Assembly: GCA_022822905.1 (NCBI GenBank)
Contig: JAJDYE010000016.1
Location: 344,731 to 408,730 of the forward strand
Reading direction: 5' to 3'
DNA from: Acidimicrobiia bacterium
Lineage (GTDB): Bacteria; Actinomycetota; Acidimicrobiia; Acidimicrobiales; Bin134
DNA: 64,000 nucleotides
In this document: positions 26,783-59,994 of the stretch, piece after piece
Position numbering within the stretch: position 1 is the first letter of the stretch
How the letters are laid out: every line of letters begins with the position of its first letter
Position numbers and translations under genes: made by a program
Notes under the pieces: model-generated
The model's database searches: none
What the model was told of the DNA's origin: nothing
Seen by the model: the letters and a program-made list of their open reading frames with translations, nothing else

Positions 26783-26802
26783 CCTATTGGAAGCGGTATC
26801 TG

Positions 26803-35875: not shown

Positions 35876-36733
35876 TTACGCCGTATCCAGCAACACTCGA
35901 GCCACCAAGTCCATCCCAAACCCGGTCAGTATCCCCAGATACAAGAGCCCTGTTGCCGCCATCACCGCCGAGTAGAACCGCTCCCGCAACGCGGCGCGGG
36001 CCAGCACCACGAGACCTGCGGTAGTCACCACGCACGCTACCCAGAACCAGCCCAGCAGCCCGTTGTAGCCATCGTCGATGGTTCCGCTGAGCACCGATCC
36101 CATGCCAGTGGGCCACAGCATCACCACCAGCTCGGGCAGCCACAACAGCCCGGTCCAACGCACCAGCTCCAGCAGCGGGCCCCGAGCCAAGCCGGGCTGC
36201 ACCAGATACCAGTGGCCCAAGAGCATGGCATCGGTCACCGCACCGAGGAAGAACGCCCCGATCACGGTGCGGGCCACGGCCAGTGCGGCCGGATCGCCCG
36301 CGTCCAACCCTCCGGCCACCACCCCGATCAAACCCACTGCCGGCGCGATCAGGTCCAGCACGGGGGGGAACTCCGGCTGGGTGCGGTCGAACCGCTGCTC
36401 CTCCCGGTCGATGCCGGTCATCTCGGCGATCTCCGCGCTGCGCCGTTCCACCCGCTCCCGCTGCCCGCTCACGCCAGCCCTTCGCCGCACCACCGACACC
36501 GCCAAAGCCAGACCAGTGGCCGCGGCGGTCGCCACTGCGGTCCAGTTCCGCACCGGCACCGGGTCGGTGGCAAAGCCCAGCCAGGCACCGCCCGCGGCAA
36601 CCAGCCCAAAGGTGCTGCGCATAAGCCAGCCGTAGCCCAGCCCGGCCTCCCGCCGTCGGGTGGTGAGCCAGGTGAACGCCAGCCCGCCCACAGCGAGTTG
36701 CAGCAGAAGCGTGGCCGGCTGAAGCTCGATCAC
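35876..36733 (-). CDS. hypothetical integral membrane protein (285 aa)
   Basis: It has about eight hydrophobic segments and no motif I recognise. A diverged copy of its last ~27 codons lies at 59807-59890. Confidence 0.55.
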   Translation of the reverse strand: MIELQPATLLLQLAVGGLAFTWLTTRRREAGLGYGWLMRSTFGLVAAGGAWLGFATDPVPVRNWTAVATAAATGLALAVSVVRRRAGVSGQRERVERRSAEIAEMTGIDREEQRFDRTQPEFPPVLDLIAPAVGLIGVVAGGLDAGDPAALAVARTVIGAFFLGAVTDAMLLGHWYLVQPGLARGPLLELVRWTGLLWLPELVVMLWPTGMGSVLSGTIDDGYNGLLGWFWVACVVTTAGLVVLARAALRERFYSAVMAATGLLYLGILTGFGMDLVARVLLDTA

Positions 36734-36784: not shown

Positions 36785-37843
36785 CTATTCGGCGTTGCCC
36801 AATCGGACCCGCAAGCGGTCGAACGACACAGCGATGATCAGAAGGGCACCTTCGCTGAACTCGATCCAGAACGTGGGCACATCGGTTTGGATGAGCCCGT
36901 TCTCCAGCACATTCAGCACGAGCAAAGCGAGAAAGGTGCCGGCGATTGAACCCCGGCCACCCGAAAGGCTGGCGCCGCCGAGGATGATCGCGGTGACCAC
37001 TGTGAGCTCGAAACCGGCGCCGCCGTTGGTGGCTGCGCTGCCCACCTGCGACACCCGGATCAGCCCAGCCAAGGCCGTGGCCACCGTGGTCAGCACAAAC
37101 GCGATGAACAGCACTCGCCCGGTCCGGATGCCGGCGAGCCGGGCGGCATGGGGATTGGCGCCGACGGCGTACACCGAGCGCCCATACACGGTGTACTTGA
37201 GCAGGAGGTGGCAAGCGATGGACACCCCGATGAAGATCCACACCGGCGTGGGAATGTCCAAGAACGGGCGGCTCACCCCCAAATCGCCGAAGCCGTTTAT
37301 CCGGATGGTCTGCCCGTCACCGAGAACTTTGGTCAGCCCGCGGAACATGGCCAGACCGCCCAGCGTCACGATGATCGAGTTCAATCCGATCTTGGTCACC
37401 GCGAATCCGTTGAATGCGCCGATCAAAAATCCCAGGGCAATGGTGATCAGGAGCGCGACCCCGATGCTCACCCCCAGCCCGTACGGCGTGGTTTCGGCAT
37501 CAGTGGCTGTGGTGGCCACGGCCATGGTCATTCCCATGAGCCCGGCCACTGATCCAACTGAGAGGTCCACCTGGCCGCCGATGAGCAGCACCGTGGCCGG
37601 CATGGCGATGATGCCGATCACCGCAGAGTTCTGGGCAATGTTGACGAAGTTGTCGAAGTCGAAGAAGTACTCAGAAGCCAGCGAGAAGTAGAGGATCAAC
37701 CCCACCAGCACAAACAGCAGCGCCGCCGTCTCCGGGAGAGAGGCAATGGTCCTGCCCAACCAACCCAACCCACTGGACTCGGGGCCAGTTGAGCCGTCCC
37801 CGGTCGGCGCAGAGGCTTCAACGGTCTCGGCAGTCTCGTTCAT
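36785..37843 (-). CDS. sugar ABC transporter permease (RbsC/AraH-type)
   Basis: Polytopic protein directly downstream of a two-NBD ATPase and an RbsB-like binding protein. Confidence 0.8.
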   Translation of the reverse strand: MNETAETVEASAPTGDGSTGPESSGLGWLGRTIASLPETAALLFVLVGLILYFSLASEYFFDFDNFVNIAQNSAVIGIIAMPATVLLIGGQVDLSVGSVAGLMGMTMAVATTATDAETTPYGLGVSIGVALLITIALGFLIGAFNGFAVTKIGLNSIIVTLGGLAMFRGLTKVLGDGQTIRINGFGDLGVSRPFLDIPTPVWIFIGVSIACHLLLKYTVYGRSVYAVGANPHAARLAGIRTGRVLFIAFVLTTVATALAGLIRVSQVGSAATNGGAGFELTVVTAIILGGASLSGGRGSIAGTFLALLVLNVLENGLIQTDVPTFWIEFSEGALLIIAVSFDRLRVRLGNAE

Positions 37844-37844
37844 C

Positions 37845-39359
37845 TCATCCTCCTGCCTGGGTGAGCAACAAGCTCATGGTGATTTCATCTCCCGGCACTT
37901 CTGCGGTGATTCTGCCCTTGGCCGCTACATAGGCGCGATCGGCTACCGCCACCACTTCCTCATGATCCGAGGTGACGATCAATATGGCGGCACCCTCTGC
38001 GGCCAAATCGCGCAGAACCTTGTAGAGATCGGCACGGGCACCCACGTCGACACCCCGGGTGGGCTCGAGCAACACCAGCGCCTCCGCTCCTCGCTCGAGC
38101 CAGCGGGCCACCAGAACCTTTTGCTGATTCCCTCCCGAGAGCTCTTCCATCGGCTGGGTGGCTCGACCCTTGCTGCGAATAGACAGGCGGTCGTACCAGC
38201 GGTCGAATGCCTTCTGCTCAGTATCGGAGGTCAGAAGACCGCGGGTGGCGAGTTGGGGCCAAGAGGCCACCGCGACATTCTCTCCGACCGGACGCGACGC
38301 GAATGCCCCTCCAACCTTGCGGTCTTCGCTCAAAAACCCGATACCCCGACTTACGGCATCAACCGGACTAGACAGTTCAACTTGCTCACCGGCAACCTCG
38401 ATTTCGCCCGAGTGGATCGGCTCAAGTCCGAAGGCGCTGCGTCCAACCTCCAACGCCCCTGATCCGAGCTTGCCGTACAAAGCCACGACCTCGCCCCGGC
38501 ACACCTCGATGTTGATGTCGCTGAATCCACCGTGTGACGACGCCTCCCGCCAGCGAAGAGCCACCTCTCCACGCTCGCCGGCGGCATCTTCTGGTCGGCC
38601 TGTGACGATGTCGTACCGCCCCACCATGGCCGCCACCAACTGGCCGCGGTCCACGGCGTCGGTGTCGGCGACAAGGGCGACATCCCCATCCCTTAACACT
38701 TGAACCCGATCAGCCAGTTCGAACACCTCGTCGAGACGGTGGGTTATGTAGATGATCGCCTTGCCCTGGTCGCGCAGGCGTCGCACCCGCTCGAACAGAA
38801 CATCCGCCTCGTGCTGGGACAGCGCTGCCGTGGGCTCGTCGAGAATGAGCACGCGGGCCTCGCTGGAGAGTGCCCGGGCGATCTCGACGATCTGCCGCTC
38901 TCCCACCGCCAGTGATGACACGTTCGCCTTGGGGTCGATTTCTGCTTCAAGAGATTCGAGAACCTCCTGGGCCAACTGATTCATCTCCCGCCAGAGGACC
39001 ATTCCCCGCTTCTGGGGCAGCCGGCCCAAAGCGATGTTCTCAGCCACCGTCAAGGTGGGGGCATCGTTGAACTCCTGGGCGATCATGGCGATGCCCGCGG
39101 CTCTCGACTCGATGGGGGTGAGGACGTGATGAGCCTCACCGTCGATCACCACCGATCCCGCAGAGGGCCGGTAGTCGCCCGCCATGATCTTGACCAGGGT
39201 GGATTTCCCGGCGCCGTTCTCACCGAGCAAGGCGAGAACAGAGCCGGAACGAGCCTCGAGGTCCACGCCCTTGAGCACCTCGACTCCGCCGAACGACTTC
39301 CTGATCCCCGCCGTGGCGATCACAGGCACCGTTGACACCGCGGTATCGGCGGCGCTCAT
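37845..39359 (-). CDS. sugar ABC transporter ATP-binding protein (duplicated NBD, RbsA-type)
   Basis: Walker A GENGAGKST; two LSxGxxQ-type signatures (LAVGERQ, LSGGNQQ); Walker B LILDEPT; 504 aa. Confidence 0.88.
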   Translation of the reverse strand: MSAADTAVSTVPVIATAGIRKSFGGVEVLKGVDLEARSGSVLALLGENGAGKSTLVKIMAGDYRPSAGSVVIDGEAHHVLTPIESRAAGIAMIAQEFNDAPTLTVAENIALGRLPQKRGMVLWREMNQLAQEVLESLEAEIDPKANVSSLAVGERQIVEIARALSSEARVLILDEPTAALSQHEADVLFERVRRLRDQGKAIIYITHRLDEVFELADRVQVLRDGDVALVADTDAVDRGQLVAAMVGRYDIVTGRPEDAAGERGEVALRWREASSHGGFSDINIEVCRGEVVALYGKLGSGALEVGRSAFGLEPIHSGEIEVAGEQVELSSPVDAVSRGIGFLSEDRKVGGAFASRPVGENVAVASWPQLATRGLLTSDTEQKAFDRWYDRLSIRSKGRATQPMEELSGGNQQKVLVARWLERGAEALVLLEPTRGVDVGARADLYKVLRDLAAEGAAILIVTSDHEEVVAVADRAYVAAKGRITAEVPGDEITMSLLLTQAGG

Positions 39360-39413
39360 CAGCAGGCCCTCATCTCAATGCAGCTTGCCACTGACAATGA
39401 GATTCGTCAGGGA

Positions 39414-40385
39414 TCAGCCGCAGTCGGTGACCTCGTAGATGTCCTCGATGTTCTCCGAGTTGATGATCTGATGCTCGGTGAACAGGAGTTCGTCAACGGA
39501 CTCCCCGGCCAGGAGCTTCTGAGCAGCGGGAATCAGAATCTCTCCATACCGCTCGGGGAAGTACGCCGTGGAAGCGACGTAGTTCGGATTGTCGCGAACC
39601 TCGCACCAGATGCTCGGATCGGTGCCCTGTCCGGAGTAGTAGAGGTCGCCGTCGCGCCCGAGGGTGCGAGCCGCGGCCAATGCGCCGATGATCCCGTCCT
39701 CGTTGATGGCCACAACGGCAATCCGATTGCCGGGCAGAGCCGGTAGCAGGTCGGTCACCTGCTCGAGGGCGGTATCAGTGCGGTCGGCGCCGTCGAGGAC
39801 TCGCTCGTTCACGATGTCGCAGTGCTGGGTGAATCCTGTGCGATAGCCGCCCATGCGGTCGGTGTTGGCCGCACCCGCTGCGGTGGACTCAAGGGAGATG
39901 TAGCCGTCGTACTCGCAATTGAAGTTGTCCTTGAAGTACTTCCCTATCGCGGCACCGGCCATCTCCCCGGCACCGGCGTTGTTGGCCCCCATGAAGGCCA
40001 CTTCACAGGGCGGCTGCACAATGTCGATGGCAATGGTGGGCACATCCCCGTAGGCCGCACAGATCTCGGGGCTGGACTCCTGGAAGACCTGGAAGTTCAA
40101 CACCACATCCACATCGCGCTGGCCGAGAAGCTGAGCGCACGACAGTGCCTTGGCCGCGTCAATTTCTGAGTCGCAGAACACCAGATCTAGACCGGCGGCG
40201 TCAGCTTCCTTTTGGATCGAGTCCGAGACCAGCTTGACGAACGGAACCGAATCTCCCAGGGAGATGTAGCCAACCGTGCCGTCGCCGCCGTCGTCATCGT
40301 TGCCGCATGCGGTGGCAACCAGCGTGAATACCGCCAAAACGGCGATCACCATCTTGAGGCTCTTCCTCATCGTATCTCCCCTCAT
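39414..40385 (-). CDS. sugar ABC transporter substrate-binding lipoprotein (RbsB/LacI-type periplasmic binding fold)
   Basis: Signal peptide with a lipobox-like LVATAC, followed by GNDDDGG. ~320 aa. Confidence 0.75.
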   Translation of the reverse strand: MRGDTMRKSLKMVIAVLAVFTLVATACGNDDDGGDGTVGYISLGDSVPFVKLVSDSIQKEADAAGLDLVFCDSEIDAAKALSCAQLLGQRDVDVVLNFQVFQESSPEICAAYGDVPTIAIDIVQPPCEVAFMGANNAGAGEMAGAAIGKYFKDNFNCEYDGYISLESTAAGAANTDRMGGYRTGFTQHCDIVNERVLDGADRTDTALEQVTDLLPALPGNRIAVVAINEDGIIGALAAARTLGRDGDLYYSGQGTDPSIWCEVRDNPNYVASTAYFPERYGEILIPAAQKLLAGESVDELLFTEHQIINSENIEDIYEVTDCG

Positions 40386-40405: not shown

Positions 40406-40419
40406 TGGAAACGTTTCTA
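40406..40419. promoter_or_regulatory. LacI-type operator palindrome, copy 1 (TGGAAACGTTTCTA)
   Basis: It lies 21 nt upstream of the binding-protein start codon and belongs to a 7-member motif family in this island. Confidence 0.6.
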
Positions 40420-40493: not shown

Positions 40494-41516
40494 CTAGGGA
40501 ATCAGCACCGAACGCAGCACTCTTCCGGCTTCGAGGTCGTCAAGCGCCTCGTTGGCCTCCGAGAGCGGGCGTTGGCGGCCCAACAGATGGTCGACTTTCA
40601 GCACACCCGAACGGTTGAGAGCCAACACCTCGCGGATGTCATCGGGAACAAATCCCCGAGAACCATGGACCGAAGCCTCTTTCCAGATCAGGTCCACCGC
40701 CCGAATGGAGAACGGCTCCACGCTGGAGCCTATGAGCAGCACCTGGCCCCCGATGCCCACCGCGGCAACCGCCTGGGCGTCCACTTCGGCCGACCCCACG
40801 GTCTGGACCACTATGGGCGGGCCGCCCGGCCCCGCGGCGGCGCGGACGGCTTCCACCACGTCACCGGCGCCGTCGGCCGCAGAAATGAGCACCCGAGCGC
40901 CCAACTGCTCGGCCAATTCCAGTTTGGCCGGCGAGCGGCTCACTGCGATCACGTCACAGCCCAGATGAGCAGCCACCTGGACGGCGTTCGACCCGATCCC
41001 GCCGACACCGAAGACCACCACGGTCATTCCGGGCTGGACATCTCCAACCCGGACGAGGGCGTGGTACGGCGTGGCCACCGCGTCGGTGAGCACCGCCACC
41101 GCGGCCAGGTCGTCATCGGGTTCCACCGGGATAAGGTTGCGGGCTGGGACCAGCACCTCGCTGGCGAAGGCACCGTCGTACTCCACTCCCATGCGCCGTA
41201 CCGACAGGCACATGTTCACCCGCCCGACGGAGCACATCGAACACTCCCCGCAATGCTCGATGTAGTAGATGGCCACCGGGTCGCCCTCTTGCACACCGCT
41301 CACCCCGGGGCCGATGCGGGACACCACCCCGGCAGCCTCGTGACCAGGCACGATGGGGAGCACCGAGTCGAATCCACCTTTGCGGAGAAAGACATCGCTG
41401 CCGCACACGCCACAGGCCTTGACCTGCACCACCACCTGATCAGGGCCGGGGGTCAGCGGCGATCGCTCGACAAACTCCAGCGCTTGCCCGTAGCCCCGTA
41501 GTTCAGCAGCTCGCAT
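40494..41516 (-). CDS. zinc-dependent medium-chain alcohol/polyol dehydrogenase
   Basis: CGVCGSD, GHEAAGVV, the structural-zinc cysteine cluster CGECSMCSVGRVNMC and the Rossmann motif VFGVGGIG. Confidence 0.85.
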   Translation of the reverse strand: MRAAELRGYGQALEFVERSPLTPGPDQVVVQVKACGVCGSDVFLRKGGFDSVLPIVPGHEAAGVVSRIGPGVSGVQEGDPVAIYYIEHCGECSMCSVGRVNMCLSVRRMGVEYDGAFASEVLVPARNLIPVEPDDDLAAVAVLTDAVATPYHALVRVGDVQPGMTVVVFGVGGIGSNAVQVAAHLGCDVIAVSRSPAKLELAEQLGARVLISAADGAGDVVEAVRAAAGPGGPPIVVQTVGSAEVDAQAVAAVGIGGQVLLIGSSVEPFSIRAVDLIWKEASVHGSRGFVPDDIREVLALNRSGVLKVDHLLGRQRPLSEANEALDDLEAGRVLRSVLIP

Positions 41517-41528: not shown

Positions 41529-42647
41529 TCAGCCGGTGCCGGGCATCCCGAGCGCTCCGGCGTCGGGCAGCTCGGGGGCGTCGAAGTTGCTGGAGCCGAA
41601 CCGGTCGGGCTTTGTCCGACCGACCCGTATGTAATACTCCTCGGGCACCTGGGTGGGATCCTTGAACATCTGCCACTGGCACTTCTGGCGGGCGTCGGGA
41701 TCGCGGTCGGTGTCGGGATACACCGGAGGGTCGATCACCCGAACCGGATAGCCGAAGCGGTCGATGGGAAGCTCCTCCATCAAAACGATGCAGTGGGCGC
41801 AGTAGAGGCAGACCCCTTTGGTGAAGTGGTTCCACGAGGCCTCTTCTTTGGCCACATCCCAGTTGTAGGGGGGATCCATCCGGGCTGGTGTGTCCTCGAT
41901 CCAGTCGCCCCGCACGGTGCGCTGCCCCGATCCACACGGGTCGAACCGCAGTATGAATCGGTCGTCGGTCTCGATCAGATCGAAATCACCGGTGCGCTCA
42001 GGGCCGACGAGGTGGCCCCGCATCGCCTCGCAAGCCACCAGCATCAGCGTTTCCAGCCCCTCGTCCCACGGGTGCTGGTCGATGTCGAACTTGTTGTATC
42101 GCCACGAGAACAGCGGAACCAGCACTCGCTGGTACATGTCGGCGATGCCCTGGGCCCCATGGCGCTCCTGAATGGCATGCATGAGGCCGTAGGTGTGGTC
42201 GACATCGCGGTCGTGGGTCTGCCGCCACGTCTCCTTCATGGCGACCAGGTTCTCCAGCGCCTCTTGGGGCTGTTCCCGATAGATGCTGGCCAACAGTTGA
42301 CGCTGCTCGGAGCGATACTGGTCCCAATGACGGTGGGGGTTCCACTGGCGTCCGTCGGGACAGGTGAGCTTGGACTGCACGTCAGAGTCAATGGCCTCGA
42401 CCACCTCGGCCGACGCCCCGCCGTCCCGCAGAAAGCCCCGCAAGTCGTTGATCCACTGGCGATAGAGGCTGAAGCACACGTTGGCCTCGTCGGTGAAGTA
42501 GTCGGCCAAATCGGCTGCGCTATCCCAGTCCCCGGCCTCGACGCTCTCGGCGATCTTCCGATATGTCGAGATCTTCTGGTCTTCCCACGATCCGAGGCGA
42601 ACCCGTCGTCCCACCACTTCAGAGAACTCGATTCTGGTCTCAGCCAT
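41529..42647 (-). CDS. uncharacterised Cys-rich protein, paralog 1 (372 aa)
   Basis: I recognise no family. It shares conserved blocks with 58620-59738: AMR.HLVGP.RTGD, FDPCGSG, KGVC.YCAHC, KC.W. Confidence 0.7.
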   Translation of the reverse strand: MAETRIEFSEVVGRRVRLGSWEDQKISTYRKIAESVEAGDWDSAADLADYFTDEANVCFSLYRQWINDLRGFLRDGGASAEVVEAIDSDVQSKLTCPDGRQWNPHRHWDQYRSEQRQLLASIYREQPQEALENLVAMKETWRQTHDRDVDHTYGLMHAIQERHGAQGIADMYQRVLVPLFSWRYNKFDIDQHPWDEGLETLMLVACEAMRGHLVGPERTGDFDLIETDDRFILRFDPCGSGQRTVRGDWIEDTPARMDPPYNWDVAKEEASWNHFTKGVCLYCAHCIVLMEELPIDRFGYPVRVIDPPVYPDTDRDPDARQKCQWQMFKDPTQVPEEYYIRVGRTKPDRFGSSNFDAPELPDAGALGMPGTG

Positions 42648-42665: not shown

Positions 42666-42679
42666 TGGTAACGTTTCCA
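42666..42679. promoter_or_regulatory. LacI-type operator palindrome, copy 2 (TGGTAACGTTTCCA)
   Basis: It sits in the centre of the 35-bp divergent gap between 42647 (-) and 42683 (+). Confidence 0.6.
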
Positions 42680-42682
42680 GCG

Positions 42683-44131
42683 ATGAGTATACCCAGCCCC
42701 TACGAACCGGGCCATCGTCGGTCGGTTGTGCCCCGGGTTGCCGTGGTCGCCCCGTACTGGGACTTCTGGGAACCGACGGTAGGGCCGGAGCTTCGCACCA
42801 GGCGCGAGCGCCTGCTGGGCACCGTGGCCGACCGCATGGGCGAGTTGGGCGCTGAAGTGGTGTGGCAAGGACTTGTCGACCATGCCGACCAGGGCACGAG
42901 CATGGGGGCTGAGGCCGCCAGTGTCGGCCCCGACGCCGTGCTGGTGGTTCAGACGATGGCGGTGCCCCCGTCCTATGTCCAAGCGATGCTGGAACACCTC
43001 CCCCAGCCGGTGGTGATCTGGGCCATACAGGACTCCACCACCATCTCTCCCGACTTCGACGCCTCCCAAATCACCTCGCTGGGCGCCACCGTGGGCACGC
43101 CCATGCTCACCAACCTGCTTCACCGTACGAGTCGGCCCTTCGAACTGGTGGTGTCGTCGACGGATGACCCAACGGCCGGCGAGGCGGTGGCCGACCGGCT
43201 CCGGGCCGGTGCCGTGGCCCATCGGCTCCGGGGGGCCCGGTTGGCCCGAGTGGGCCGACCCATGGACGGATACGTGTGCGTGGACGCCGACGACGACGAT
43301 CTCCACCGGGCCCTCGGAATGCAGGTGGTACACATCAGCCCCCAGGAGGTGAAGGATCGCTACCAGGCCGTTGGCGACGACGAAATCGCCGCAGCGCGAC
43401 AAGAAGTGGACCGGCATTTTGCGGTTGGTGACAGCCCTCCCCAGGAAAACCTGGCCCGAACGCTGCGGCTGGCCGTGGCCATGGAGACGCTCGATCGGGA
43501 CAACTCCATCGCCGCAGGGGCCATCAACTGCCACGTTCCCGAGATCCGCTTCGGCGACGATCCGGGGCTGACTCCGTGCTTCGGACTGGGCTGCGAGACC
43601 ACCCGGGGCATCCCCTGGAGCTGCACGGGAGACGTGCTCACCGCGGTGGCCATGCTGGTGGCCAAGGGGCTGTCTGGCGCCGCCCTCTACCACGAGGTGG
43701 AGGCCATCGACTTCGAGACCGGGGAGGTGGCCATTGCCAACTCCGGCGAGCACGACTTGGGTTGGACCGCCGAAGGGCAGGCCCCCGGCTTCGAGCCCAA
43801 TCCGTGGTTCGCCCACGACCCCCGCACGAGCTTTCGGGCGCATTTCGAGCTGCCCGCGGGCCCGGCTTCGTTGGTGGGGTTTACCCACCAGCCCGATCAC
43901 CCATCCGGGTTCGGATTAGTGGTGGCCGAAGGGGAGATCACCGGCCGTGAGCTGCCCTGGAATCCCACCGCAGGAGGGGTATTCCGTTTCACTACCAGCC
44001 CGGTGACCGAGGCATGGACCCGCTGGGCCAGTGCCGGAGTCAACCACCACAGCGCCATAGCCCCAGGACACTTGGCCCAGCCGGTGGCGTCGGTGGCCAG
44101 ATTCGCCGGGGTGGAGTGCGTGGTGGTTTGA
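42683..44131 (+). CDS. L-arabinose/L-fucose isomerase-superfamily protein (tentative)
   Basis: Overall layout resembles AraA: VAVVAPYWDFW..., AVLVVQTMAVPPSYVQAML..PVVIWAIQ, C-terminal GVNHHSAIAPGH...A.FAGVECVVV. Start at ATG 42683, downstream of the operator. Confidence 0.5.
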   Translation: MSIPSPYEPGHRRSVVPRVAVVAPYWDFWEPTVGPELRTRRERLLGTVADRMGELGAEVVWQGLVDHADQGTSMGAEAASVGPDAVLVVQTMAVPPSYVQAMLEHLPQPVVIWAIQDSTTISPDFDASQITSLGATVGTPMLTNLLHRTSRPFELVVSSTDDPTAGEAVADRLRAGAVAHRLRGARLARVGRPMDGYVCVDADDDDLHRALGMQVVHISPQEVKDRYQAVGDDEIAAARQEVDRHFAVGDSPPQENLARTLRLAVAMETLDRDNSIAAGAINCHVPEIRFGDDPGLTPCFGLGCETTRGIPWSCTGDVLTAVAMLVAKGLSGAALYHEVEAIDFETGEVAIANSGEHDLGWTAEGQAPGFEPNPWFAHDPRTSFRAHFELPAGPASLVGFTHQPDHPSGFGLVVAEGEITGRELPWNPTAGGVFRFTTSPVTEAWTRWASAGVNHHSAIAPGHLAQPVASVARFAGVECVVV

Positions 44132-44165: not shown

Positions 44166-45557
44166 TCACACCGTGGCCAGCTGAATCCCCAGCAAGTCGG
44201 CCACTGCACCGAGGTCGCCGCGGCAAGCGCCGGGAAGAAGCGCCGCATGGTGGGTGGCGCCCGCCTGACACCAGCGCTGGTACGCCTCAGCCACCGGCGA
44301 CGATGAGAATCGGAACATGGCGTTGGGACCTTCCATTCGGTGATGCCGGGAGCCGATGACCTCTCCCTCTGCCACCACCAAGATCCAGCCGCCCGCCGCC
44401 CCCGAGGCCGGGGTCAGGCTCACCAGCGTGGCCGGACCAACGGGCATCTCGAAGGCCACCGCCACGCCGGGGCCGTTGTCGCCGCGGTAGTGGTCTTCGG
44501 GCAATAGCCGAATGGTCGATCCCGGCGCCCGACCCGAGTAGTCGCCCTCTCCTCCGTTTGCCACCAAGATCCAGTTGCCGGACAGGTCGAGCTGATAGAG
44601 CTCGCAATACAGGGCCGAGTTTGCCACCGCCTTGCCCAGCATGAGCGCGATGGCGGTAGGGACGTCCCCGGTGCAGGCAAACGGGCTGCCCCTCTCGCTC
44701 ATCCGGCTCACCCCCAAACAGGCGGTTATCCCCACTCCTGGATTCCACCGCAGGGTGGGGCCGTGGCAGTTCACCGCCCCGCCACCCAGCCCGCGGGCGT
44801 CGCACAGGCCTTCGAGGGCAACGCTCAACCGGCACGACCGCTCCAACACCTCATCGGAAACCGCCTCGGCGTCGGCTACCCCTTGCACTTCCTCGATCTC
44901 CTGCCGCACATGGGCCTCGGCGACCGCGGCGTATGCCTCCGATAGCTCCGGGGCGGTGACGGCCTCCACCTGCACGCCCAGCCGAGCCAGATCGTCGTCG
45001 GTGGCCAGCACATCGCTGTAGCCGTCCATGGGCTGGCCCACCAGCGCGATCGGCCGCCGCCGTATGGCGGTCACCGCCGCCGCGGCCCGCATCGCCTGAT
45101 CCAGCGTGGCCGACAGCTCCGGCGTGCCCAACTCCCCCACCACAGAGGCAAAGGGGCACCCGTTGCGCACCAGCACGTTGGTGAACATCACCAAGCCCAC
45201 CGGGAGGCTACGAGCAGTTGCCATCTCCGTGTCGTAGTCGTCGGGCACCACCCCGCTCTCTTGGGCGCCCAGAACCACCACCGGCACGTCCGCGCCGCTC
45301 AAAGCTTGCTCGGACCAGGCCGGAGGCGCGGCCATGGTGGGGGCGAACACCACCATGTCCACCTCCTCGCGGGCGAACACCTTGGCCGCGTGCACCGCTT
45401 GGTCCATGCTGTCCACCAGTCCGGGATCCACCACCTCGCCGTAGGCGGCCAGCAACTCCCCCACCGCCGTGGCATATTGGCGGCGGGTCTCGCGGAACCC
45501 GGCCGGCATGGCCTCGTCGAAGAGCCCGAAGTACACCGAGAGCTGACCAATCCTCAC
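44166..45557 (-). CDS. L-arabinose/L-fucose isomerase-superfamily protein, diverged paralog (tentative)
   Basis: Same block structure (QLSVYFGLFDE..., C-terminal GATHHAALLPGA...LLGIQLATV). GTG 45557 is preceded by AAGGAAGG. The longer ORF to 45668 would run across the operator. Confidence 0.5.
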   Translation of the reverse strand: MRIGQLSVYFGLFDEAMPAGFRETRRQYATAVGELLAAYGEVVDPGLVDSMDQAVHAAKVFAREEVDMVVFAPTMAAPPAWSEQALSGADVPVVVLGAQESGVVPDDYDTEMATARSLPVGLVMFTNVLVRNGCPFASVVGELGTPELSATLDQAMRAAAAVTAIRRRPIALVGQPMDGYSDVLATDDDLARLGVQVEAVTAPELSEAYAAVAEAHVRQEIEEVQGVADAEAVSDEVLERSCRLSVALEGLCDARGLGGGAVNCHGPTLRWNPGVGITACLGVSRMSERGSPFACTGDVPTAIALMLGKAVANSALYCELYQLDLSGNWILVANGGEGDYSGRAPGSTIRLLPEDHYRGDNGPGVAVAFEMPVGPATLVSLTPASGAAGGWILVVAEGEVIGSRHHRMEGPNAMFRFSSSPVAEAYQRWCQAGATHHAALLPGACRGDLGAVADLLGIQLATV

Positions 45558-45591
45558 TGCAATCCCTTCCTTGCCGAGCGGCCCTGCATAC

Positions 45592-45605
45592 TGGAAACGA
45601 TTCTG
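45592..45605. promoter_or_regulatory. LacI-type operator palindrome, copy 3 (TGGAAACGATTCTG)
   Basis: It lies in the divergent gap between 45557 (-) and 45619 (+). Confidence 0.5.
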
Positions 45606-45618
45606 GCACAATGCCTCC

Positions 45619-47037
45619 ATGCTCACCGCCGGCATCGCCCGAGTGGACATCACCCCGTCGGTCCCCATCGATGTGGTCGGCTATTCCCGTCGAGCGGAGC
45701 CGGCCCGGCACATAAGGGCGCCCCTGACCGCCACTGCGCTGGCCCTGAGCTCAGGTTCCACCACCGCAGTGGTCATCGCCGCCGACGTGCCGTTCCTGCT
45801 GCCCGCCCACGCCGACCGGCTGCGAGCCGAGATCGCCGACGCACTAGGCACCTCGGCCGACCATGTGATGATCAGCGTCAGCCACACCCACGGCGGACCC
45901 ACCACCCATGCCCACGGCGTGAAGATCGGCGGACGCCAGCGAGAGCGCTCGGCCAATGAACGCGAGTTCATCGACTCATTCCCCCAACAGCTCGCCGCCG
46001 CCGCGATTCAGGCGGCGGGCTGCATGGAACCGGTGCGGGCTGCCGGCGGGGTCGGCTCGGTGGACTTGGCCGTGAACCGGCGCGAGAAGAACGCCGAGGG
46101 CCGGGTGATCCTCGGGTGGAATCCCGACAAGCCCGTGGACCGCGACGTGGGAGTGCTGAGAATCGACCGCCTAGACGGCACGACGTTGGCCGTGGTGGTG
46201 AACTACGCCTGCCATCCGGTGGTGGTCGGGCCCGAGGATCCGGGGGTGAACCCCGACTTTCCCGGTCCAATGCGCGATCTGGTGGAGCAGGTGACCGGTG
46301 CCACCTGCCTGTTCTTGCAGGGGGGCTGCGGCAATCTGCTCCCGTTGGAGGGCTTTTTCGACCATCCCGGGCCCGAACAGGCCTTCGGACGCAAGCTGGG
46401 GGTGGAGGTGCTGCACGTGCTGGAGCAGATCGACCCGATCGAACGGCGGTTGGAGCGGATCGACTACGGCTCGGTCACCCCGATCGTGCTGCACCGGCGG
46501 GTGGCCATCGAGCCCCAACCCGATCAGGAGCTGGCCGCGGTGGGACGCGTGGTGGAGCTACCGCTCAAACCGCTGCCGTCGCTGGCCGACCTGGAAGCTG
46601 AGCGCGATGGCTATCAGCGGGAACTCGAAGACGCTCGCCAAGCAGGCGCCGACCAGGCAGCGCTCAATCCCATCGAGTACCACCTCAACTGGGCCGAGGA
46701 CGCCATCGACCAACTGAGCCAGGGCGAGGTCGCCCCCAGCGTCCCGGCCTTCCTCCAAGCCCTGAAGATCGGTGACACGGTGATCGCCACCATGCCCGGA
46801 GAGGCGTTCTCGGAGCTGTCTATCGAGGTGAAACAGCGCTCAGCAGCCGCCACTACCCTGTTCTCGGCCTACACCAACGGCGTGCTCACCTACATGCCCC
46901 CGGCGGCGGAGTACCCCGACGGCGGGTATGAATGCGACTACGCCCACCACTCCTACGGGCTGGTCGAGCAGATCGCGCCCCAAAGCGAGCGGATCCTGGT
47001 GGAGACCAGCGTGGAGTTGATCTCAGCCACCTGGTGA
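45619..47037 (+). CDS. neutral/alkaline ceramidase-like hydrolase family protein
   Basis: AGIARVDITPSVPIDVVGYSRR and SVSHTHGGP match the N-terminal signature of the neutral ceramidase-like family. Start at MLTAGIARVD. Confidence 0.55.
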   Translation: MLTAGIARVDITPSVPIDVVGYSRRAEPARHIRAPLTATALALSSGSTTAVVIAADVPFLLPAHADRLRAEIADALGTSADHVMISVSHTHGGPTTHAHGVKIGGRQRERSANEREFIDSFPQQLAAAAIQAAGCMEPVRAAGGVGSVDLAVNRREKNAEGRVILGWNPDKPVDRDVGVLRIDRLDGTTLAVVVNYACHPVVVGPEDPGVNPDFPGPMRDLVEQVTGATCLFLQGGCGNLLPLEGFFDHPGPEQAFGRKLGVEVLHVLEQIDPIERRLERIDYGSVTPIVLHRRVAIEPQPDQELAAVGRVVELPLKPLPSLADLEAERDGYQRELEDARQAGADQAALNPIEYHLNWAEDAIDQLSQGEVAPSVPAFLQALKIGDTVIATMPGEAFSELSIEVKQRSAAATTLFSAYTNGVLTYMPPAAEYPDGGYECDYAHHSYGLVEQIAPQSERILVETSVELISATW

Positions 47038-47068: not shown

Positions 47069-47383
47069 TCAATCCTGGTGCCACACCTCGTCGGCCCAAT
47101 ACAGGTTGCCCTCGTCGTCGGCCAAGCTCACGATCACTTCCTCGAACCACTTCGACCAGCGGGCGTTGACCTCCGACTCGCCCACCTTGGCGAACGCGGT
47201 CTCGACATCGGGATGGCACTCCACGTAGGCGATCACCTGCGTGCCCCGTCGAAACAGGGTGTAGTTCTTCAAACCGGCGGTCTGGATGAGCTCGACAAGC
47301 TCTGGCCAGATCTCGTCATGGCGCTTCTTGTACTCATCAGCCATGTCCGGGTAGATCTCGAAGGTAAAACAGGCACGCTCCAT
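47069..47383 (-). CDS. rhaM: L-rhamnose mutarotase
   Basis: About 104 aa. MERACFTFEIYPDMADEYKKRHDEIWPELVELI...NYTLF...ARWSKWF aligns by eye with E. coli YiiL/RhaM (EY..RH..IWPEL, NY, RW). Confidence 0.85.
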   Translation of the reverse strand: MERACFTFEIYPDMADEYKKRHDEIWPELVELIQTAGLKNYTLFRRGTQVIAYVECHPDVETAFAKVGESEVNARWSKWFEEVIVSLADDEGNLYWADEVWHQD

Positions 47384-47406
47384 AGCCGGCAAGTTACCCG
47401 GTGGCT

Positions 47407-47420
47407 GCGAAACGTTTCCA
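47407..47420. promoter_or_regulatory. LacI-type operator palindrome, copy 4 (GCGAAACGTTTCCA)
   Basis: It lies 24 nt upstream of the rhaM ATG (47383). Confidence 0.55.
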
Positions 47421-47467
47421 GCGGCAACCGCGGGGGAGGTCTCCTCTCCCTCTGGACCCATCGCCCC

Positions 47468-48220
47468 TCAGTCGATGAGGAAGCCCCCGTTCACATCCAT
47501 CACCTCGCCGGTGATGAACTCAGCTTGCTCGCCGGCCAGGAACAGCACTGCTTGGGCCACGTCGGTCGGACGACCCAGCCGCCCAACCGGGATGCGGTCG
47601 GCCAGATCGGCGATCCCGGTGACCATGTCGGTGTTGATGAGGGCAGGGGCCAGCGCATTGGAGGTGATCCCAAACGGGGCGTATTCGGTGGCGATGGCCT
47701 TGGCCAGGGCCATCACCCCGGCTTTGGACGCGCCGTAGGCCGCGGTGTTCTTGGACCCGCCGGTCTTGCCCGCGCTCGACCCGATGGAGATGACCCGGCC
47801 CCAACCCCGCTCCCGCATCTTGGGCAGCACCCGCTTGCTGCACAGAAAGCAACCCGTGAGGTTAACCGCCATCATCTGGTTCCAGTCACCCAGCTCGGTT
47901 TCCTCCAGGGGCTGGATGGCGAAGATCCCGGCATTGTTCACCAGGATGTCCACCTGTCCCCATGCCGCCTCCACTTGGGAGAAGGCCGCGTCCACCGAAG
48001 ACTCGCTGGTCACGTCGCATTCGGCGAACATGGTGTTGTCGGCTTGGTCTAGCGCCGACCGGTCTTCGGGTGCTCGAACATCTAGGAGGGCAACCCGAGC
48101 TCCGCCGGCCAGCAGCGCTTCGGCCACCGCCCTTCCGATTCCCTGGGCGGCACCGGTCACCGCCGCGATCCGCCCGGCCACACACCCATACCCGACATCA
48201 GAACTCGAGATGTCCGTCAT
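47468..48220 (-). CDS. short-chain dehydrogenase/reductase (sugar or 2-keto-3-deoxy-sugar-acid dehydrogenase candidate)
   Basis: VTGAAQGIGRAVA, NNAG and YGASKAG. Confidence 0.8.
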   Translation of the reverse strand: MTDISSSDVGYGCVAGRIAAVTGAAQGIGRAVAEALLAGGARVALLDVRAPEDRSALDQADNTMFAECDVTSESSVDAAFSQVEAAWGQVDILVNNAGIFAIQPLEETELGDWNQMMAVNLTGCFLCSKRVLPKMRERGWGRVISIGSSAGKTGGSKNTAAYGASKAGVMALAKAIATEYAPFGITSNALAPALINTDMVTGIADLADRIPVGRLGRPTDVAQAVLFLAGEQAEFITGEVMDVNGGFLID

Positions 48221-48253: not shown

Positions 48254-48267
48254 TGGAAACGTTACCG
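48254..48267. promoter_or_regulatory. LacI-type operator palindrome, copy 5 (TGGAAACGTTACCG)
   Basis: It lies in the divergent gap between 48220 (-) and 48287 (+). Confidence 0.55.
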
Positions 48268-48286: not shown

Positions 48287-49387
48287 ATGACGGCCAACGA
48301 GAAAAAGGTCCGTGTCGGTGTCATCGGCGCGGGGTCTTGGGCAATCAGCAACCACATTCCCGTCCTGGCGGCGCGGGACGACGTGGAGCTGGTGTCGGCC
48401 GTTCGCAAGGGACGCGACGCATTGGAGTCGATCGGCGAGCGGTTCGGCTTTTCCCACCTGAGCGAAGACTATCGAGATGCCCTCGACCAGGGACTCGATG
48501 CCGTGGTGGTGGCCAGCCCCTCCGGCCTCCACCACGAGCACGCCAAGGCCGCCATGGAGGCAGGCGCAGACGTGCTCTGTGAGAAGCCCTTCACCGTGGA
48601 GCCCGCCGACGCTTGGGACCTCCACCGCACCGCCGAGGAGTTGGGCCGAAATCTGGTGATCTCCTTCGGTTGGAACTACGGGCCACTGGGCATGGAGGCC
48701 AAGAGACTCATGGACGAAGAGGGCGGCGTGGGCGAGGTGGAGCACGTCATGGTGTCCATGGCGTCGGGGACCCGCGAGCTGCTCACCTCCACTGGCGGCG
48801 GCGGATATGAGGGATCGGCCGAGGGATTCGCGCCCGAGGCCGCCACGTGGACCGACCCCGCCTTATCGGGTGGCGGATACGCCCCGGCCCAGATCTCCCA
48901 CGCCATGGGCCTGGCAATGTGGCTGACCGGCGATCGGGCCCGAGAGGTCTTCGCTTTCATGAACAACCGGGGGGCGCGGGTAGACCTCCACGACGCCATC
49001 TCGGTGCGATATGCCTCGGGGGCCACCGGATCAATTAGCGGCGCAAGCTGCCCTGGTCCCGCCAACGCCATCGACGATCCCGACGAACCGTGGCCCCGCC
49101 ACCAGCTCCTAGTGCGCCTCTACGGCTCCGAGGGGCAGCTCATCGCCGACTTGGAGCGGGATTTCCTTTGGCTGTACCGCAACGACGGCTTCGACTTAAA
49201 GGTAGACCTGCCCCGCCACGCCGGCCTCTACACCTGCGATGGGCCTCCCAACACGCTGGTGGATCTGGCCCAGGGTCGGGATGCGACCAACCTATCGCCC
49301 GCCGAGTTGGGCGCCCGCACGGTGGAGGTGGTGGCCGCCGCCGAGCACAGCGCCCAGTCGGGCAGCGTCGTGCAGGTCGGCGATTGA
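48287..49387 (+). CDS. Gfo/Idh/MocA-family NAD(P)-dependent oxidoreductase
   Basis: VGVIGAGSWAISNHIPVL and EKP. AGGAGG lies upstream of the ATG. Confidence 0.8.
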   Translation: MTANEKKVRVGVIGAGSWAISNHIPVLAARDDVELVSAVRKGRDALESIGERFGFSHLSEDYRDALDQGLDAVVVASPSGLHHEHAKAAMEAGADVLCEKPFTVEPADAWDLHRTAEELGRNLVISFGWNYGPLGMEAKRLMDEEGGVGEVEHVMVSMASGTRELLTSTGGGGYEGSAEGFAPEAATWTDPALSGGGYAPAQISHAMGLAMWLTGDRAREVFAFMNNRGARVDLHDAISVRYASGATGSISGASCPGPANAIDDPDEPWPRHQLLVRLYGSEGQLIADLERDFLWLYRNDGFDLKVDLPRHAGLYTCDGPPNTLVDLAQGRDATNLSPAELGARTVEVVAAAEHSAQSGSVVQVGD

Positions 49388-49427
49388 GACCAGCTTGCGC
49401 ATAGAGGAAACCAGCTTGCGCATAGGT
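49386..49427 (+). repeat. 21-bp tandem duplication spanning the stop of the Gfo-type gene and the start region of the next gene
   Basis: gag acc agc ttg cgc ata gag / gaa acc agc ttg cgc ata ggt. The 16-nt core accagcttgcgcatag occurs at 49389-49404 and 49410-49425. Confidence 0.9.
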
Positions 49428-50285
49428 GTTGACAGCTACTCGTTCCACAGGTACTTCGGGGAGCTGAGAGAGGGCGAATCCCCTGTCGACCAGCGCTGGA
49501 CTACCGATGACTTCCTGAACTTCTGTTCCGAACTAGGCGTCGACGGAGTTTCGCTGGAGACCTGCTTCTTGGACTGCGACTCCGACGCCGAGGTGGCATC
49601 GCTTCGCCAGCGCCTCGACCAGCACGGCTTCGAGCGGGTGCTGGCCTGGGGCCACCCTGACGGACTGGCCATGGGCCTCGATCCCGAGGCGTTTGCCGAC
49701 GCGCTCGCTGCGGTGGACCGGGCCGCCGGGCTGGGGTGCGGGCTGCTCCGCATCGTGGTGGGCATAACCCGTCATTTCGGCCAGGAGAGCGAAACCGAGG
49801 TGCTCCGCCGGGTGGTCCCCCAGGTAGCCGAGATCACCGACCGAGCCGAACAGCGCGGCCTGGACGTGGCCGTCGAAACCCACTGCGATCTCACCACCGC
49901 CTCCGTCGGCACCCTCGTCGAGCAGGTGGCCAGCCCCCGGCTGGGCGTGGTGTTCGACAGCGCCAATGTTGTCCGCATCGGCGAGAACCTATTGGCCGCC
50001 GCGACTGCTCTGGCCCCCTATACCAAGATGATCCACGTCAAAGACCTGGATCTTCAGTCGTCCACGCCCGGCGAGCCCGGGGGCCACTGGCCCGGGGTGC
50101 CCCTCGGTCTCGGCGACTTGGACATTGCCGGCACCTTGGAGTTGATGGAAGCGGCCGGATTCGACGGGCTGGCCTACGTAGAAGTGGCCGACATGGCCTC
50201 TGGCTGGTCAGAGCACGAGATCGTGGCCCAGTCTGTGGATTGGCTAGGCAAGTTCGCTACCGAAAGGCACCCATGCCCAGAATGA
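49416..50285 (+). CDS. sugar phosphate isomerase/epimerase (xylose isomerase-like TIM barrel)
   Basis: RIGVDSYSFHRYF, VSLETCF and IHVKDLD. TTG 49416 has GAGGA 7 nt upstream. An in-frame TTG at 49395 is an alternative created by the duplication. Confidence 0.75.
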   Translation: MRIGVDSYSFHRYFGELREGESPVDQRWTTDDFLNFCSELGVDGVSLETCFLDCDSDAEVASLRQRLDQHGFERVLAWGHPDGLAMGLDPEAFADALAAVDRAAGLGCGLLRIVVGITRHFGQESETEVLRRVVPQVAEITDRAEQRGLDVAVETHCDLTTASVGTLVEQVASPRLGVVFDSANVVRIGENLLAAATALAPYTKMIHVKDLDLQSSTPGEPGGHWPGVPLGLGDLDIAGTLELMEAAGFDGLAYVEVADMASGWSEHEIVAQSVDWLGKFATERHPCPE

Positions 50286-52269: not shown

Positions 52270-52280
52270 GGAGCGATTCC

Positions 52281-52520
52281 GTGCGCTACACCATCAAGCT
52301 CCCCAAGTTGGGGGATACCACCGAGCTGGTGGTGGTTCTCGAATGGCTGGCCGAGGTGGGCGACGCCGTGACCGCGGGCGACGACTTGGTGCGGGTTGAG
52401 ACTGACAAAGTGGACTCTGATGTCCCCAGCCCGGTGTCGGGAACCCTCGTGGAACACCTCGTGGCCGTGGACGATGAGGTGGACATCGGCGACCCCATCG
52501 CCATCATCGTCTCCGACTGA
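52281..52520 (+). CDS. stand-alone lipoyl-domain protein (79 aa)
   Basis: IKLPKLGDTT...GDDLVRVETDKVDSDVPSPVSGTL carries the lipoyl-lysine motif ETDK. The ORF ends after the domain, with no linker or acyltransferase core. Confidence 0.8.
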   Translation: MRYTIKLPKLGDTTELVVVLEWLAEVGDAVTAGDDLVRVETDKVDSDVPSPVSGTLVEHLVAVDDEVDIGDPIAIIVSD

Positions 52521-53633: not shown

Positions 53634-53717
53634 ATCCACCCCCCTTCTCAGGCTCGGTAGCGCAAGAGCATGTTTTCGCCGTATCGACAGTAGCGGGAAT
53701 GGCATGGTTTGTGTTAC

Positions 53718-53731
53718 TGGAAACGTTGCCA
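53718..53731. promoter_or_regulatory. LacI-type operator palindrome, copy 6 (TGGAAACGTTGCCA)
   Basis: It lies in the divergent gap between the lacI-family gene and the enolase-superfamily gene (GTG 53771). Confidence 0.6.
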
Positions 53732-53770
53732 ATACGCTGACTGACTGGACTAGATGAGGTAGTCAAGATC

Positions 53771-55816: not shown

Positions 55817-55855
55817 GCTGATTCCTCCCGGACAGTCGATTGGCCGTTACCCTAC

Positions 55856-55869
55856 TAAAAACGTTTCCA
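55856..55869. promoter_or_regulatory. LacI-type operator palindrome, copy 7 (TAAAAACGTTTCCA)
   Basis: It lies in the divergent gap between 55816 (-) and the SDR start at 55915 (+). Confidence 0.55.
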
Positions 55870-55914
55870 GAAGTTCGGTGGGAGGAAGATGCGAACCACA
55901 CCACCCCGCGTGGC

Positions 55915-59917: not shown

Positions 59918-59994
59918 CATTATAGTGTTCTTCGTGAGCGCCTTTGGGCTAATATTGGCTAGACTTTTTGTACAAGATTTGGGAATCTTGGGGG

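Follow-up and report, generated by a model that had tools for sequence, protein, structure and literature searches.

Non-phosphorylative pathways for L-fucose and L-rhamnose include a diketo-deoxy-hexonate step, normally carried out by hydrolases of the fumarylacetoacetate hydrolase (FAH) family (PF01557) or by aldolases of the HpcH or dihydrodipicolinate synthase (DHDPS) type. The FAH-family enzymes include the 2,4-diketo-3-deoxy-L-fuconate and -L-rhamnonate hydrolases XCC4068 of Xanthomonas and LRA6 of Sphingomonas. We analyzed a 64,000-nucleotide (nt) stretch of DNA from an Acidimicrobiia bacterium (positions 344,731 to 408,730 of contig JAJDYE010000016.1, assembly GCA_022822905.1; hereafter the window), which carries an island of 6-deoxy-sugar genes at ~35.8–59.7 kb. 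Within this island are two paralogous genes, here called copy 1 and copy 2, whose products are cytoplasmic members of a previously undescribed protein superfamily without a solved structural relative. Kinase-free oxidation of fucose, rhamnose and related sugars is regarded as a main route to dissolved carbohydrate for abundant marine and soil Chloroflexota, such as SAR202 (PMC10444878), and for Actinomycetota. Islands of the kind described here lack every known pathway-closing enzyme, yet they consistently encode this strongly conserved, unnamed protein. A function assigned to it would fill a gap in pathway reconstruction for hundreds of uncultured lineages.

An earlier reading of this DNA, made from its letters without database searches (the original prediction), had singled out the two genes as paralogs of identical length. 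Both open reading frames (ORFs) were confirmed (Table 1), and the proteins align by BLASTP with 40% identity across 347 amino acids (aa) (E 2e-96). Each of the conserved blocks that had been aligned by hand is present in this alignment. The two proteins are indeed both 372 aa long, but the match is a coincidence: copy 2 is extended at the N-terminus (by ~23 aa) and copy 1 at the C-terminus (by ~24 aa). Copy 2 begins with a GTG codon 14 nt past the stop codon of the preceding short-chain dehydrogenase/reductase (SDR) gene, and the sequence AAGGGGG before this start is a good match to a Shine-Dalgarno site. Long spurious ORFs are common in high-GC DNA, and we therefore considered whether the copies are chance ORFs. 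The GC content at third codon positions is 0.81–0.82 for both copies in a window of 65.6% GC, which identifies them as coding frames. Full-length homologs that keep the motifs number in the hundreds and span several phyla, synteny is conserved, and the structure model described below is confident. The homology and conservation data thus already refute the chance-ORF explanation, whose probability we put close to nil.

Relatives of the two copies were sought in a collection of 5.8 billion proteins, which yielded 616 for copy 1 and 580 for copy 2. All of these are unnamed or labelled “hypothetical”, with no precomputed Pfam domain in any of them. When 1.84 billion cluster representatives were searched with a profile, 869 clusters (50% identity) were recovered at E ≤ 1e-3 and 544 at E ≤ 1e-10. 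A pattern scan in which each GTDB species was represented by a single genome gave 408 confirmed family loci. The closest of them, at 99% identity, belong to Candidatus Poriferisocius and other metagenome-assembled genomes of sponge-associated Acidimicrobiia, which identifies the window as DNA of a sponge symbiont. Further loci occur in Chloroflexota, Limnocylindria, Gaiellales and Euzebyaceae at 64–70% identity, a level of conservation between phyla that is unusually high.

An alignment of 61 sequences from both subfamilies contains 67 invariant columns. These include five cysteines (C238, C280, C283, C286 and C323, in copy 1 numbering) together with H145, D146, D150, E207, R210, H212 and H285, and also many Arg, Trp and Tyr residues. 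The five cysteines, which had been predicted to be invariant, are 99–100% conserved across 240 close homologs. Among divergent representatives, conservation remains high for C238 (97%), C283 (89%), H285 (92%), C286 (91%) and C323 (100%, n = 41), as well as for H145 (90%), D146 (95%), H212 (91%) and R17 (96%). In contrast, C280 is Cys in only 65% of divergent members, which often have Pro or Ser instead. The C-x2-C-x2-C run that had been read as a set of cluster ligands is thus present with that spacing in close homologs, but this reading is weakened by the variability of its first cysteine across the superfamily. Because of this variability, we describe the conserved set as a CxxC motif plus two remote cysteines rather than a CxxCxxC triad. 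As judged from the alignments, the superfamily core comprises four cysteines (C238, C283, C286 and C323) and H145, D146, H212 and H285. The motifs that define the family are an N-terminal R-x-R hairpin, HD, E..R.H, DPCG[ST]GGR, YCxHC and a late Cys that has an aromatic residue after it. They are carried by both window copies, the 240 close homologs, the short forms and the proteins from Rhodococcus.

The superfamily varies in length. Short forms of ~250 aa lack the helical insert and keep HD, E..R.H, DPCGSGGR, YCxHC and the late Cys, and other members are tandem duplications of ~500 aa. In the tandem members P0282 (498 aa), P0314 (549 aa), P0374 and P0387, the Cys set of the second repeat is degenerate (PSRCARAC, for example). 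This degeneracy suggests a pseudo-dimeric architecture for the tandem members, and single-domain members possibly dimerise. Apparent fusions of relatives with CoA-transferase, GFO and SDR proteins were set aside as read-through fragments at contig ends.

The original prediction could name no family for these proteins, and our searches bear this out. Neither copy has a match in Pfam-A or NCBIfam, even at E ≤ 1, and no match was found among PDB chain sequences for copy 1, copy 2 or the 61-sequence profile (phmmer and profile search). Scanning of distant relatives, both long and short, also found no known domains. An AlphaFold2 model built from the 61-sequence alignment has a mean predicted local distance difference test score (pLDDT) of 91.9 and a predicted template modelling score of 0.89. 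In the model, a beta-hairpin (residues 5–18) precedes long helices (28–211) and a small alpha/beta domain (223–340). The helical bundle is predicted to bear the conserved HD and E..R.H motifs, and the C-terminal alpha/beta domain DPCGSGGR, YCxHC and the late Cys, with C283 and C286 placed at the N-terminus of a helix. A Foldseek search of the full-length model against 350,542 PDB chains found nothing at E ≤ 0.001. The best match had an E-value of 0.013, all TM-scores were <0.3, and the matches were generic helical bundles. The C-terminal domain predicted separately (pLDDT 82) had no Foldseek neighbour in the PDB, and the full model had none in BFVD, where only chance helical matches appeared. 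We found nothing on this family in the literature on non-FAH diketo-hydrolases, Poriferisocius or Rhodococcus clusters. In both sequence and fold the family is new, and it adds a protein fold without a solved relative. At the system level, the most likely view is that a new scaffold serves a familiar type of function within a familiar type of pathway.

Several named families were considered and rejected. For the FAH superfamily there is no Pfam match at E ≤ 1 for either copy, and the mixed beta-sandwich/roll of the FAH fold differs from the mainly long helices and small alpha/beta domain of the model, which has no Foldseek PDB match at E ≤ 0.001. Class II aldolases of the HpcH/HpaI type (PF03328) have no Pfam match, and the model is not a TIM barrel. 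A radical SAM enzyme would show CxxxCxxC, whereas the spacing here is CxxCxxC, and PF04055 has no match. A 4Fe-4S ferredoxin-type site is disfavoured by the missing C-P after C-x2-C-x2-C, the 65% conservation of the first Cys and the lack of a Fer4 match. Weak matches to DUF4363, FCD, the XXXCH domain, DsbA and NDH subunit I (E 0.09–2.9) were treated as noise, and no profile match supports the JGI label “IscX/YfhJ” on one homolog.

More generally, the family resembles CxxC redox and zinc modules (the CPHC motif of DsbA, Cys4 zinc ribbons and the ferredoxin pattern CxxCxxCxxxCP) in having C-x-H-C at a helix N-terminus and two further cysteines. It differs from them in that no thioredoxin, zinc-ribbon or ferredoxin match was found by sequence or fold. 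From the ferredoxin motif it also differs by lacking the fourth Cys-Pro and by the variable first Cys of the run. A thioredoxin-fold CxxC oxidoreductase like DsbA was rejected; the phmmer match to DsbA (E 0.28) is at chance level and covers a region without the cysteines, and Foldseek gave no such match. From their conservation we infer that the four cysteines converge on one site, and the family protein probably binds zinc or an iron-sulfur (Fe-S) cluster.

The two copies share one regulon with 6-deoxy-sugar genes. The operator motif proposed for the island is real. The palindrome TGGAAACGTTTCCA, allowing ≤3 mismatches, occurs eight times in the window against 1.27 expected, and none of 100 shuffles reached eight. 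Seven of the eight sites lie at island promoters, which marks the island as one regulon, presumably controlled by the LacI-family gene within it. Copy 1 had been proposed to head an operon, which agrees with an operator 19 nt upstream of its start and a zinc-dependent alcohol dehydrogenase (Zn-ADH) gene 12 nt downstream. The proposal that both copies stand under the operator holds directly for copy 1; copy 2 is the last gene of its operon, and its operator lies at the divergent promoter shared with the lactonase gene. Operators were thus found at both relevant promoters, and mutarotase, sugar dehydrogenase, lactonase and enolase dehydratase genes are syntenic.

The position of copy 1 beside an operator also suits a ligand sensor or regulator, in which a helical domain would bind metal or carboxylate and a Cys4 zinc module would contact DNA, RNA polymerase, a transporter or a local repressor. 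The family is portable across many catabolic operons with its own paralog in each island, and transporters or regulators often adjoin it (a LacI gene precedes the family gene in locus L002, and TRAP, ABC and MFS genes stand by short forms). However, the proteins have no helix-turn-helix or other DNA-binding domain, and translational coupling in the middle of an enzyme operon is atypical of regulators. The identity between Acidimicrobiia and Chloroflexota orthologs (65–70%) is also very high for such a role. Dedicated regulators are already there (LacI in the window, FCD-GntR and TetR in the Rhodococcus operons), and the proteins are acidic, with isoelectric points of 4.6–4.8, which disfavours a DNA-binding regulator. 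We consider a sensor or regulator very unlikely.

We counted neighbouring genes in 93 loci with long-form homologs, mostly copy-1 orthologs and including some near-duplicates. Isomerase-like genes are the commonest neighbours of copy-1 orthologs (76 of the 93 loci within 10 kb); they lie ≤3 kb from the family gene in 67 loci and form the divergent upstream gene in 51. The commonest immediate partner is Zn-ADH, which is the next annotated gene downstream on the same strand in 50 loci. Within 10 kb, Zn-ADH was found in 65 of the loci, SDR in 58, the L-rhamnose mutarotase RhaM in 56, an ABC ATPase in 55, lactonase in 37, AP_endonuc_2 in 36, GFO in 30, enolase in 27, E1 alpha in 24 and a second family copy in 16. 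Copy-2-type genes always lie inside sugar islands, sometimes in tandem with a copy-1-type gene, and are often coupled to a lactonase (L001, L085 and L096), SDR or RhaM gene. The family gene directly follows SDR in the window, L005, L100, L101 and R. opacus, Zn-ADH in L097 and lactonase in L096. The coupling of family genes to dehydrogenase and pathway-enzyme genes is thus tight or even translational. The association with sugar-catabolic genes, which the original prediction had proposed to test by gene neighbourhood, is strong and extends to the enolase superfamily, SDR, Amidohydro_2 lactonase, RhaM and CUT2 ABC transporters.

Known closing enzymes are absent from this setting. The island has no FAH, no YfaU-, DHDPS- or 2-keto-3-deoxy-6-phosphogluconate (KDPG)-type aldolase, no IlvD/Edd and no aldehyde dehydrogenase, and phmmer with E. 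coli YcgM gave no match within the window. With E. coli YcgM, YfaU, DapA, Eda, Edd and AldA as phmmer queries, we searched 96 long-form loci (1.67 Mb) and detected no FAH, YfaU-type HpcH, DHDPS, KDPG aldolase or IlvD homolog, and a single aldehyde dehydrogenase fragment. In the Pfam-annotated loci, FAH, DHDPS and Aldedh were found in none, and the only HpcH genes (L005–L007) are CoA-lyase-like and are followed by CoA-transferase and MaoC hydratase genes. The original claim that the island lacks an FAH or aldolase gene therefore extends to its homologous loci. This absence makes a role in C-C cleavage plausible. The further suggestion that the family supplies this missing step fits the data without being specific to them.

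The copy 2 gene stands where an FAH hydrolase gene would stand in such an operon, behind the second SDR of a mutarotase/SDR/lactonase/enolase/SDR set. In contrast, the family has no sequence or fold relation to FAH enzymes and is Cys-rich, which they are not, and copy-1 orthologs and short forms also occur where no diketo-acid is expected. HpcH/HpaI aldolases (such as E. coli YfaU, a 2-keto-3-deoxy-L-rhamnonate aldolase) and DHDPS-type aldolases provide an alternative closing step in the same pathways, and the islands lack them save for the CoA-lyase-type HpcH genes. The family differs from these aldolases in having neither a TIM barrel nor a sequence match, and the island has no aldehyde dehydrogenase for a lactaldehyde product. 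A further comparison is the inositol route of Thermotoga, in which, as outlined in one account (PMC5931981), a GFO dehydrogenase and an IolM-type Zn-ADH lead through a diketo intermediate to 5-keto-L-gluconate. The island shares with the T. maritima IolG/IolM/IolN/IolO set a GFO oxidoreductase, an IolM-like Zn-ADH and an AP_endonuc_2 protein, to which the family is added. The similarities all fall far under curated cutoffs; the best NCBIfam match of the Zn-ADH is IolM at 190 bits (cutoff 450). IolN is reportedly a hydrolase, and the family is not an IolN homolog because it has no NCBIfam match at all. By analogy, the inositol route is a precedent for two dehydrogenations followed by diketone cleavage with the same partner families.

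Based on conservation and context, we tentatively propose that the family protein is a metal-binding enzyme that acts on the carbonyl product of a neighbouring dehydrogenase, in the island as the terminal C-C cleavage. The four conserved cysteines would hold a structural or catalytic zinc or an Fe-S cluster, and the conserved His, Asp, Glu and Arg residues would make up the binding site of an anionic carbonyl compound. The enzyme would act straight after an NAD(P)-dependent dehydrogenase (Zn-ADH or SDR), and in the island it would complete the kinase-free breakdown of 6-deoxy sugars. The substrate of copy 2 would be the 2,4-diketo-3-deoxy- (or 2-keto-3-deoxy-) 6-deoxy-hexonate that the SDR-enolase-SDR set produces. 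In a module that also includes RhaM and the isomerases related to SftI, copy 1 would carry out an analogous beta-dicarbonyl cleavage of what its coupled Zn-ADH makes.

Several observations weigh against this proposal. The sample of loci leans to sponge-associated Acidimicrobiia, near-duplicates included, and the absence of FAH holds for ±10 kb around the family genes, not genome-wide. Isomerase, Zn-ADH and RhaM partners of copy-1 orthologs are far commoner than enolase or lactonase, and the classic diketo-acid is thus not an obvious substrate of copy 1. Short and intermediate relatives occur in many unrelated operons (AMP-ligase, acyl-CoA dehydrogenase (ACAD), E1/E2/E3, B12 mutase, carboxylase, TRAP/ABC and gamma-glutamyl-amine), a spread that fits an accessory or general-purpose protein better than a single specific C-C lyase. 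Thiamine diphosphate (ThDP)-dependent E1 subunits and a lipoyl carrier are often present in the islands (24 of 93 loci; 50300–52520 in the window) and could themselves perform C-C cleavage or decarboxylation, which would remove the “hole” in the pathway. We hold the proposal as possible rather than probable because the superfamily is portable across unrelated pathways, because E1 and the lipoyl carrier could close the pathway, and because we infer the chemistry.

A bolder form of the cleavage proposal is that the family founds a novel superfamily of metalloenzymes that hydrolyse beta-dicarbonyls. Copy 1, with RhaM, an SftI-like isomerase and Zn-ADH, would then make up a full four-enzyme, kinase-free route not described before, in which 6-deoxy-hexoses pass from aldose to ketose to 2,4-diulose and on to L-lactate plus dihydroxyacetone. 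In the classical oxidative route, copy 2 would take over from the FAH hydrolase without being homologous to it. We regard this as quite unlikely.

The same conservation and coupling would also suit an enzyme for another step on the hydroxy- or oxo-acid of the dehydrogenase: a ketol or keto-enol isomerase, an epimerase, an aconitase-like Fe-S (de)hydratase, a beta-keto acid decarboxylase or a lactone-processing enzyme. The coupling of copy-2-type genes to Amidohydro_2 lactonase and the broad range of contexts, which suits a generic carbonyl or carboxylate transformation, both point this way. So does locus L100, where a short-form gene lies between an SDR gene and an acetoacetate-decarboxylase-family gene. 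This operon consists of an ABC transporter, FucI/AraA isomerase, GFO, AP_endonuc_2, SDR, the family gene, the acetoacetate-decarboxylase-family gene, SDR, 2-hydroxyacid dehydrogenase and RhaM, with no enolase and no lactonase, and it echoes the copy-1 module of the window. On the other hand, isomerases, enolase dehydratases and lactonases are already encoded in the islands, no such step is obviously missing, and Fe-S hydro-lyases usually have three Cys ligands whereas four cysteines are conserved here. A hydratase slot for the short forms was set aside on account of L146, which seems to have crotonase-type hydratases, as judged from N-terminal sequence motifs without a Pfam scan. An enzyme of this kind seems doubtful to us, though worth serious consideration.

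Short forms from 73 metagenomic loci stand at operon ends, and the operons are of various types: E1b-E2-E3, E3-ACAD-ACAD-(family)-SDR, ACAD-ACAD-AMP-ligase, B12-mutase and carboxylase-(family)-TRAP transporter. Homologs also occur in cultured Rhodococcus, on megaplasmids, which makes the question of function directly testable. On pRHL3 of R. jostii RHA1, the operon reads ACAD, E1a, E1b, E2, Zn-ADH, (family), E3, SDR, AMP-ligase, with the family gene after an IS3 insertion and between Zn-ADH and lpdA. A full-length form is encoded by R. pyridinivorans SB3094 and by R. opacus 1CP (R1CP_RS35835), where the gene order is SDR-DUF1116-SDR-(family)-GS-like-GS-like within a gamma-glutamylation-type amine cluster. 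The Rhodococcus homologs keep H145, D146, C238, C283, H285, C286 and C323. The presence of the wider superfamily in acyl-CoA, E1/E2/E3, B12-mutase, carboxylase and gamma-glutamyl-amine operons means that the family is not a dedicated deoxy-sugar enzyme. The RHA1 homolog itself (RHA1_RS42950, 255 aa; locus L183, 7764–9813), which directly follows the IS3-family insertion, lacks the N-terminal part, H212 and R303 and may be a disrupted copy.

These contexts bear on a non-catalytic or redox accessory role, in which CxHC or an Fe-S cluster would act as a thiol-disulfide or electron relay, or the protein as an off-loading factor for the ThDP E1/lipoyl-carrier/E3 system. C-x-H-C resembles redox CxxC motifs such as the CPHC of DsbA, the RHA1 gene overlaps stop-to-start in its ACAD-E1a-E1b-E2-...-E3 operon, and at several metagenomic loci short forms directly follow E3-like genes. 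In the window and in L008–L013, neither an E2 catalytic domain nor E3 accompanies E1 beta, E1 alpha and the free lipoyl carrier. But only 24 of the 93 long-form loci have an E1 gene within 10 kb, many contexts are without any lipoyl system, the fold is not thioredoxin-like (no Foldseek match of that kind), and the His, Asp and Arg of the helical domain point to a ligand site over a simple relay. An accessory role is unlikely in our view. Finding the function of the family could bring to light either a new, metal-dependent mode of C-C bond cleavage or a new lipoyl/ThDP accessory.

Table 1. Features of the sugar island and its regulon in the window (positions numbered from the first nucleotide of the window)
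Feature	Position	Strand	Note
Family copy 1	41529-42647	-	ORF, ATG start, 372 aa, isoelectric point 4.8; heads copy 1 - Zn-ADH (- ABC transporter) operon
Copy 1 Cys/His core codons	C238 41934-41936; C280 41808-41810; C283 41799-41801; H285 41793-41795; C286 41790-41792; C323 41679-41681	-	Assigned by conservation
Family copy 2	58620-59738	+	ORF, GTG start, 372 aa, isoelectric point 4.6; closes SDR-enolase-SDR-copy 2 operon
Copy 2 core Cys codons	C263 59406-59408; C305 59532-59534; C308 59541-59543; C311 59550-59552; C347 59658-59660	+	Assigned by conservation
LacI-type operator TGGTAACGTTTCCA	42666-42679	.	35-nt divergent promoter of copy 1 and isomerase-like gene
Operator TAAAAACGTTTCCA	55856-55869	.	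Divergent promoter of lactonase and SDR-enolase-SDR-copy 2 operon
TGGAAACGTTTCCA sites in island	40406-40419, 42666-42679, 45592-45605, 47407-47420, 48254-48267, 53718-53731, 55856-55869		
TGGAAACGTTTCCA site outside island	29213-29226		
LacI-family regulator	52563-53732	-	Presumed binder of island operators
CUT2-type sugar ABC transporter	36785-40385	-	Substrate-binding protein 39414-40385, double ATPase 37845-39359, permease 36785-37843; own operator 40406-40419
Zn-dependent medium-chain alcohol dehydrogenase	40494-41516	-	Pfam ADH_N/ADH_zinc_N
Isomerase-like gene	42683-44131	+	Divergent from copy 1; distant relative of SftI (sulfoquinovose isomerase) and AraA
Isomerase-like paralog	44166-45668	-	
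L-rhamnose mutarotase RhaM	47069-47461	-	
SDR	47468-48220	-	
Operon GFO/IDH/MocA oxidoreductase - AP_endonuc_2 TIM barrel - E1 beta - E1 alpha - lipoyl carrier	48287-52520	+	Operator 48254-48267
ThDP E1 beta	~50300-51289	+	
ThDP E1 alpha	51259-52269	+	
Free lipoyl carrier	52281-52520	+	79 aa, ETDK motif
Enolase-superfamily dehydratase	53771-54877	+	
Amidohydro_2 lactonase	54929-55816	-	Best match L-fucono-1,5-lactonase
SDR	55840-56661	+	
Enolase	56690-57838	+	
SDR	57736-58605	+	

The isomerase-like protein divergent from copy 1 matches SftI at 75 bits (cutoff 700), and its only relatives are SftI and L-arabinose isomerase. Its start is likely the ATG at 42683, since the longest ORF, from 42563, would run into copy 1. 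The E1 beta, E1 alpha and lipoyl-carrier genes of the sugar regulon have no E2 catalytic domain and no E3 alongside, and the same trio recurs in this form in L008–L013. Together with the SftI-like isomerases and the absence of a kinase, E1 and the lipoyl carrier hint at an undescribed ThDP/lipoyl-dependent cleavage step in 6-deoxy-sugar catabolism. Two other proteins of the island have little or no annotation. The last gene of the copy-1/ABC operon (35876–36733, minus strand) encodes a 285-aa protein that has no Pfam, NCBIfam or PDB match and occurs in only 7 of 93 related loci. For a 488-aa protein (45571–47037, plus strand), present in 18 of the 93, the only match is below threshold (28.9 bits, cutoff 32.1) and is to the N-terminal domain of neutral ceramidase.

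Just past copy 2, a small ORF (59968–60282, plus strand) contains …TIPASQFRNHCLRLMDEINETGDTLIVTKHGKPVAVV… and by eye has the look of a Phd/YefM-type antitoxin. A 610-aa fusion of an LplA-B_cat lipoyl/octanoyl transferase with a radical-SAM lipoyl synthase is encoded 2 kb from copy 2, near the lipoyl carrier of the island (61910–63742, minus strand). Outside the island, a complete dTDP-L-rhamnose biosynthesis set (RmlD, RmlB, RmlC and RmlA-like; 14383–17904, minus strand) lies beside glycosyltransferase and ABC-2/Wzt export genes. With this set and the sugar island, 6-deoxy-hexoses would be both made and degraded by genes of the same stretch. We found no tRNA, no match in Rfam and no ORF with high GC content at third codon positions in the region 26800–30000, which may be of foreign origin or degraded; a gene for a Uma2-family endonuclease follows it (30013–30711). 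The B12-dependent methionine synthase MetH (1312-aa ORF, 31886–35824, plus strand) overlaps an M17 leucyl aminopeptidase ORF (30769–32361, minus strand) by ~475 nt as called. Its first Pfam domain starts at residue 158, so the true MetH start is probably further downstream.

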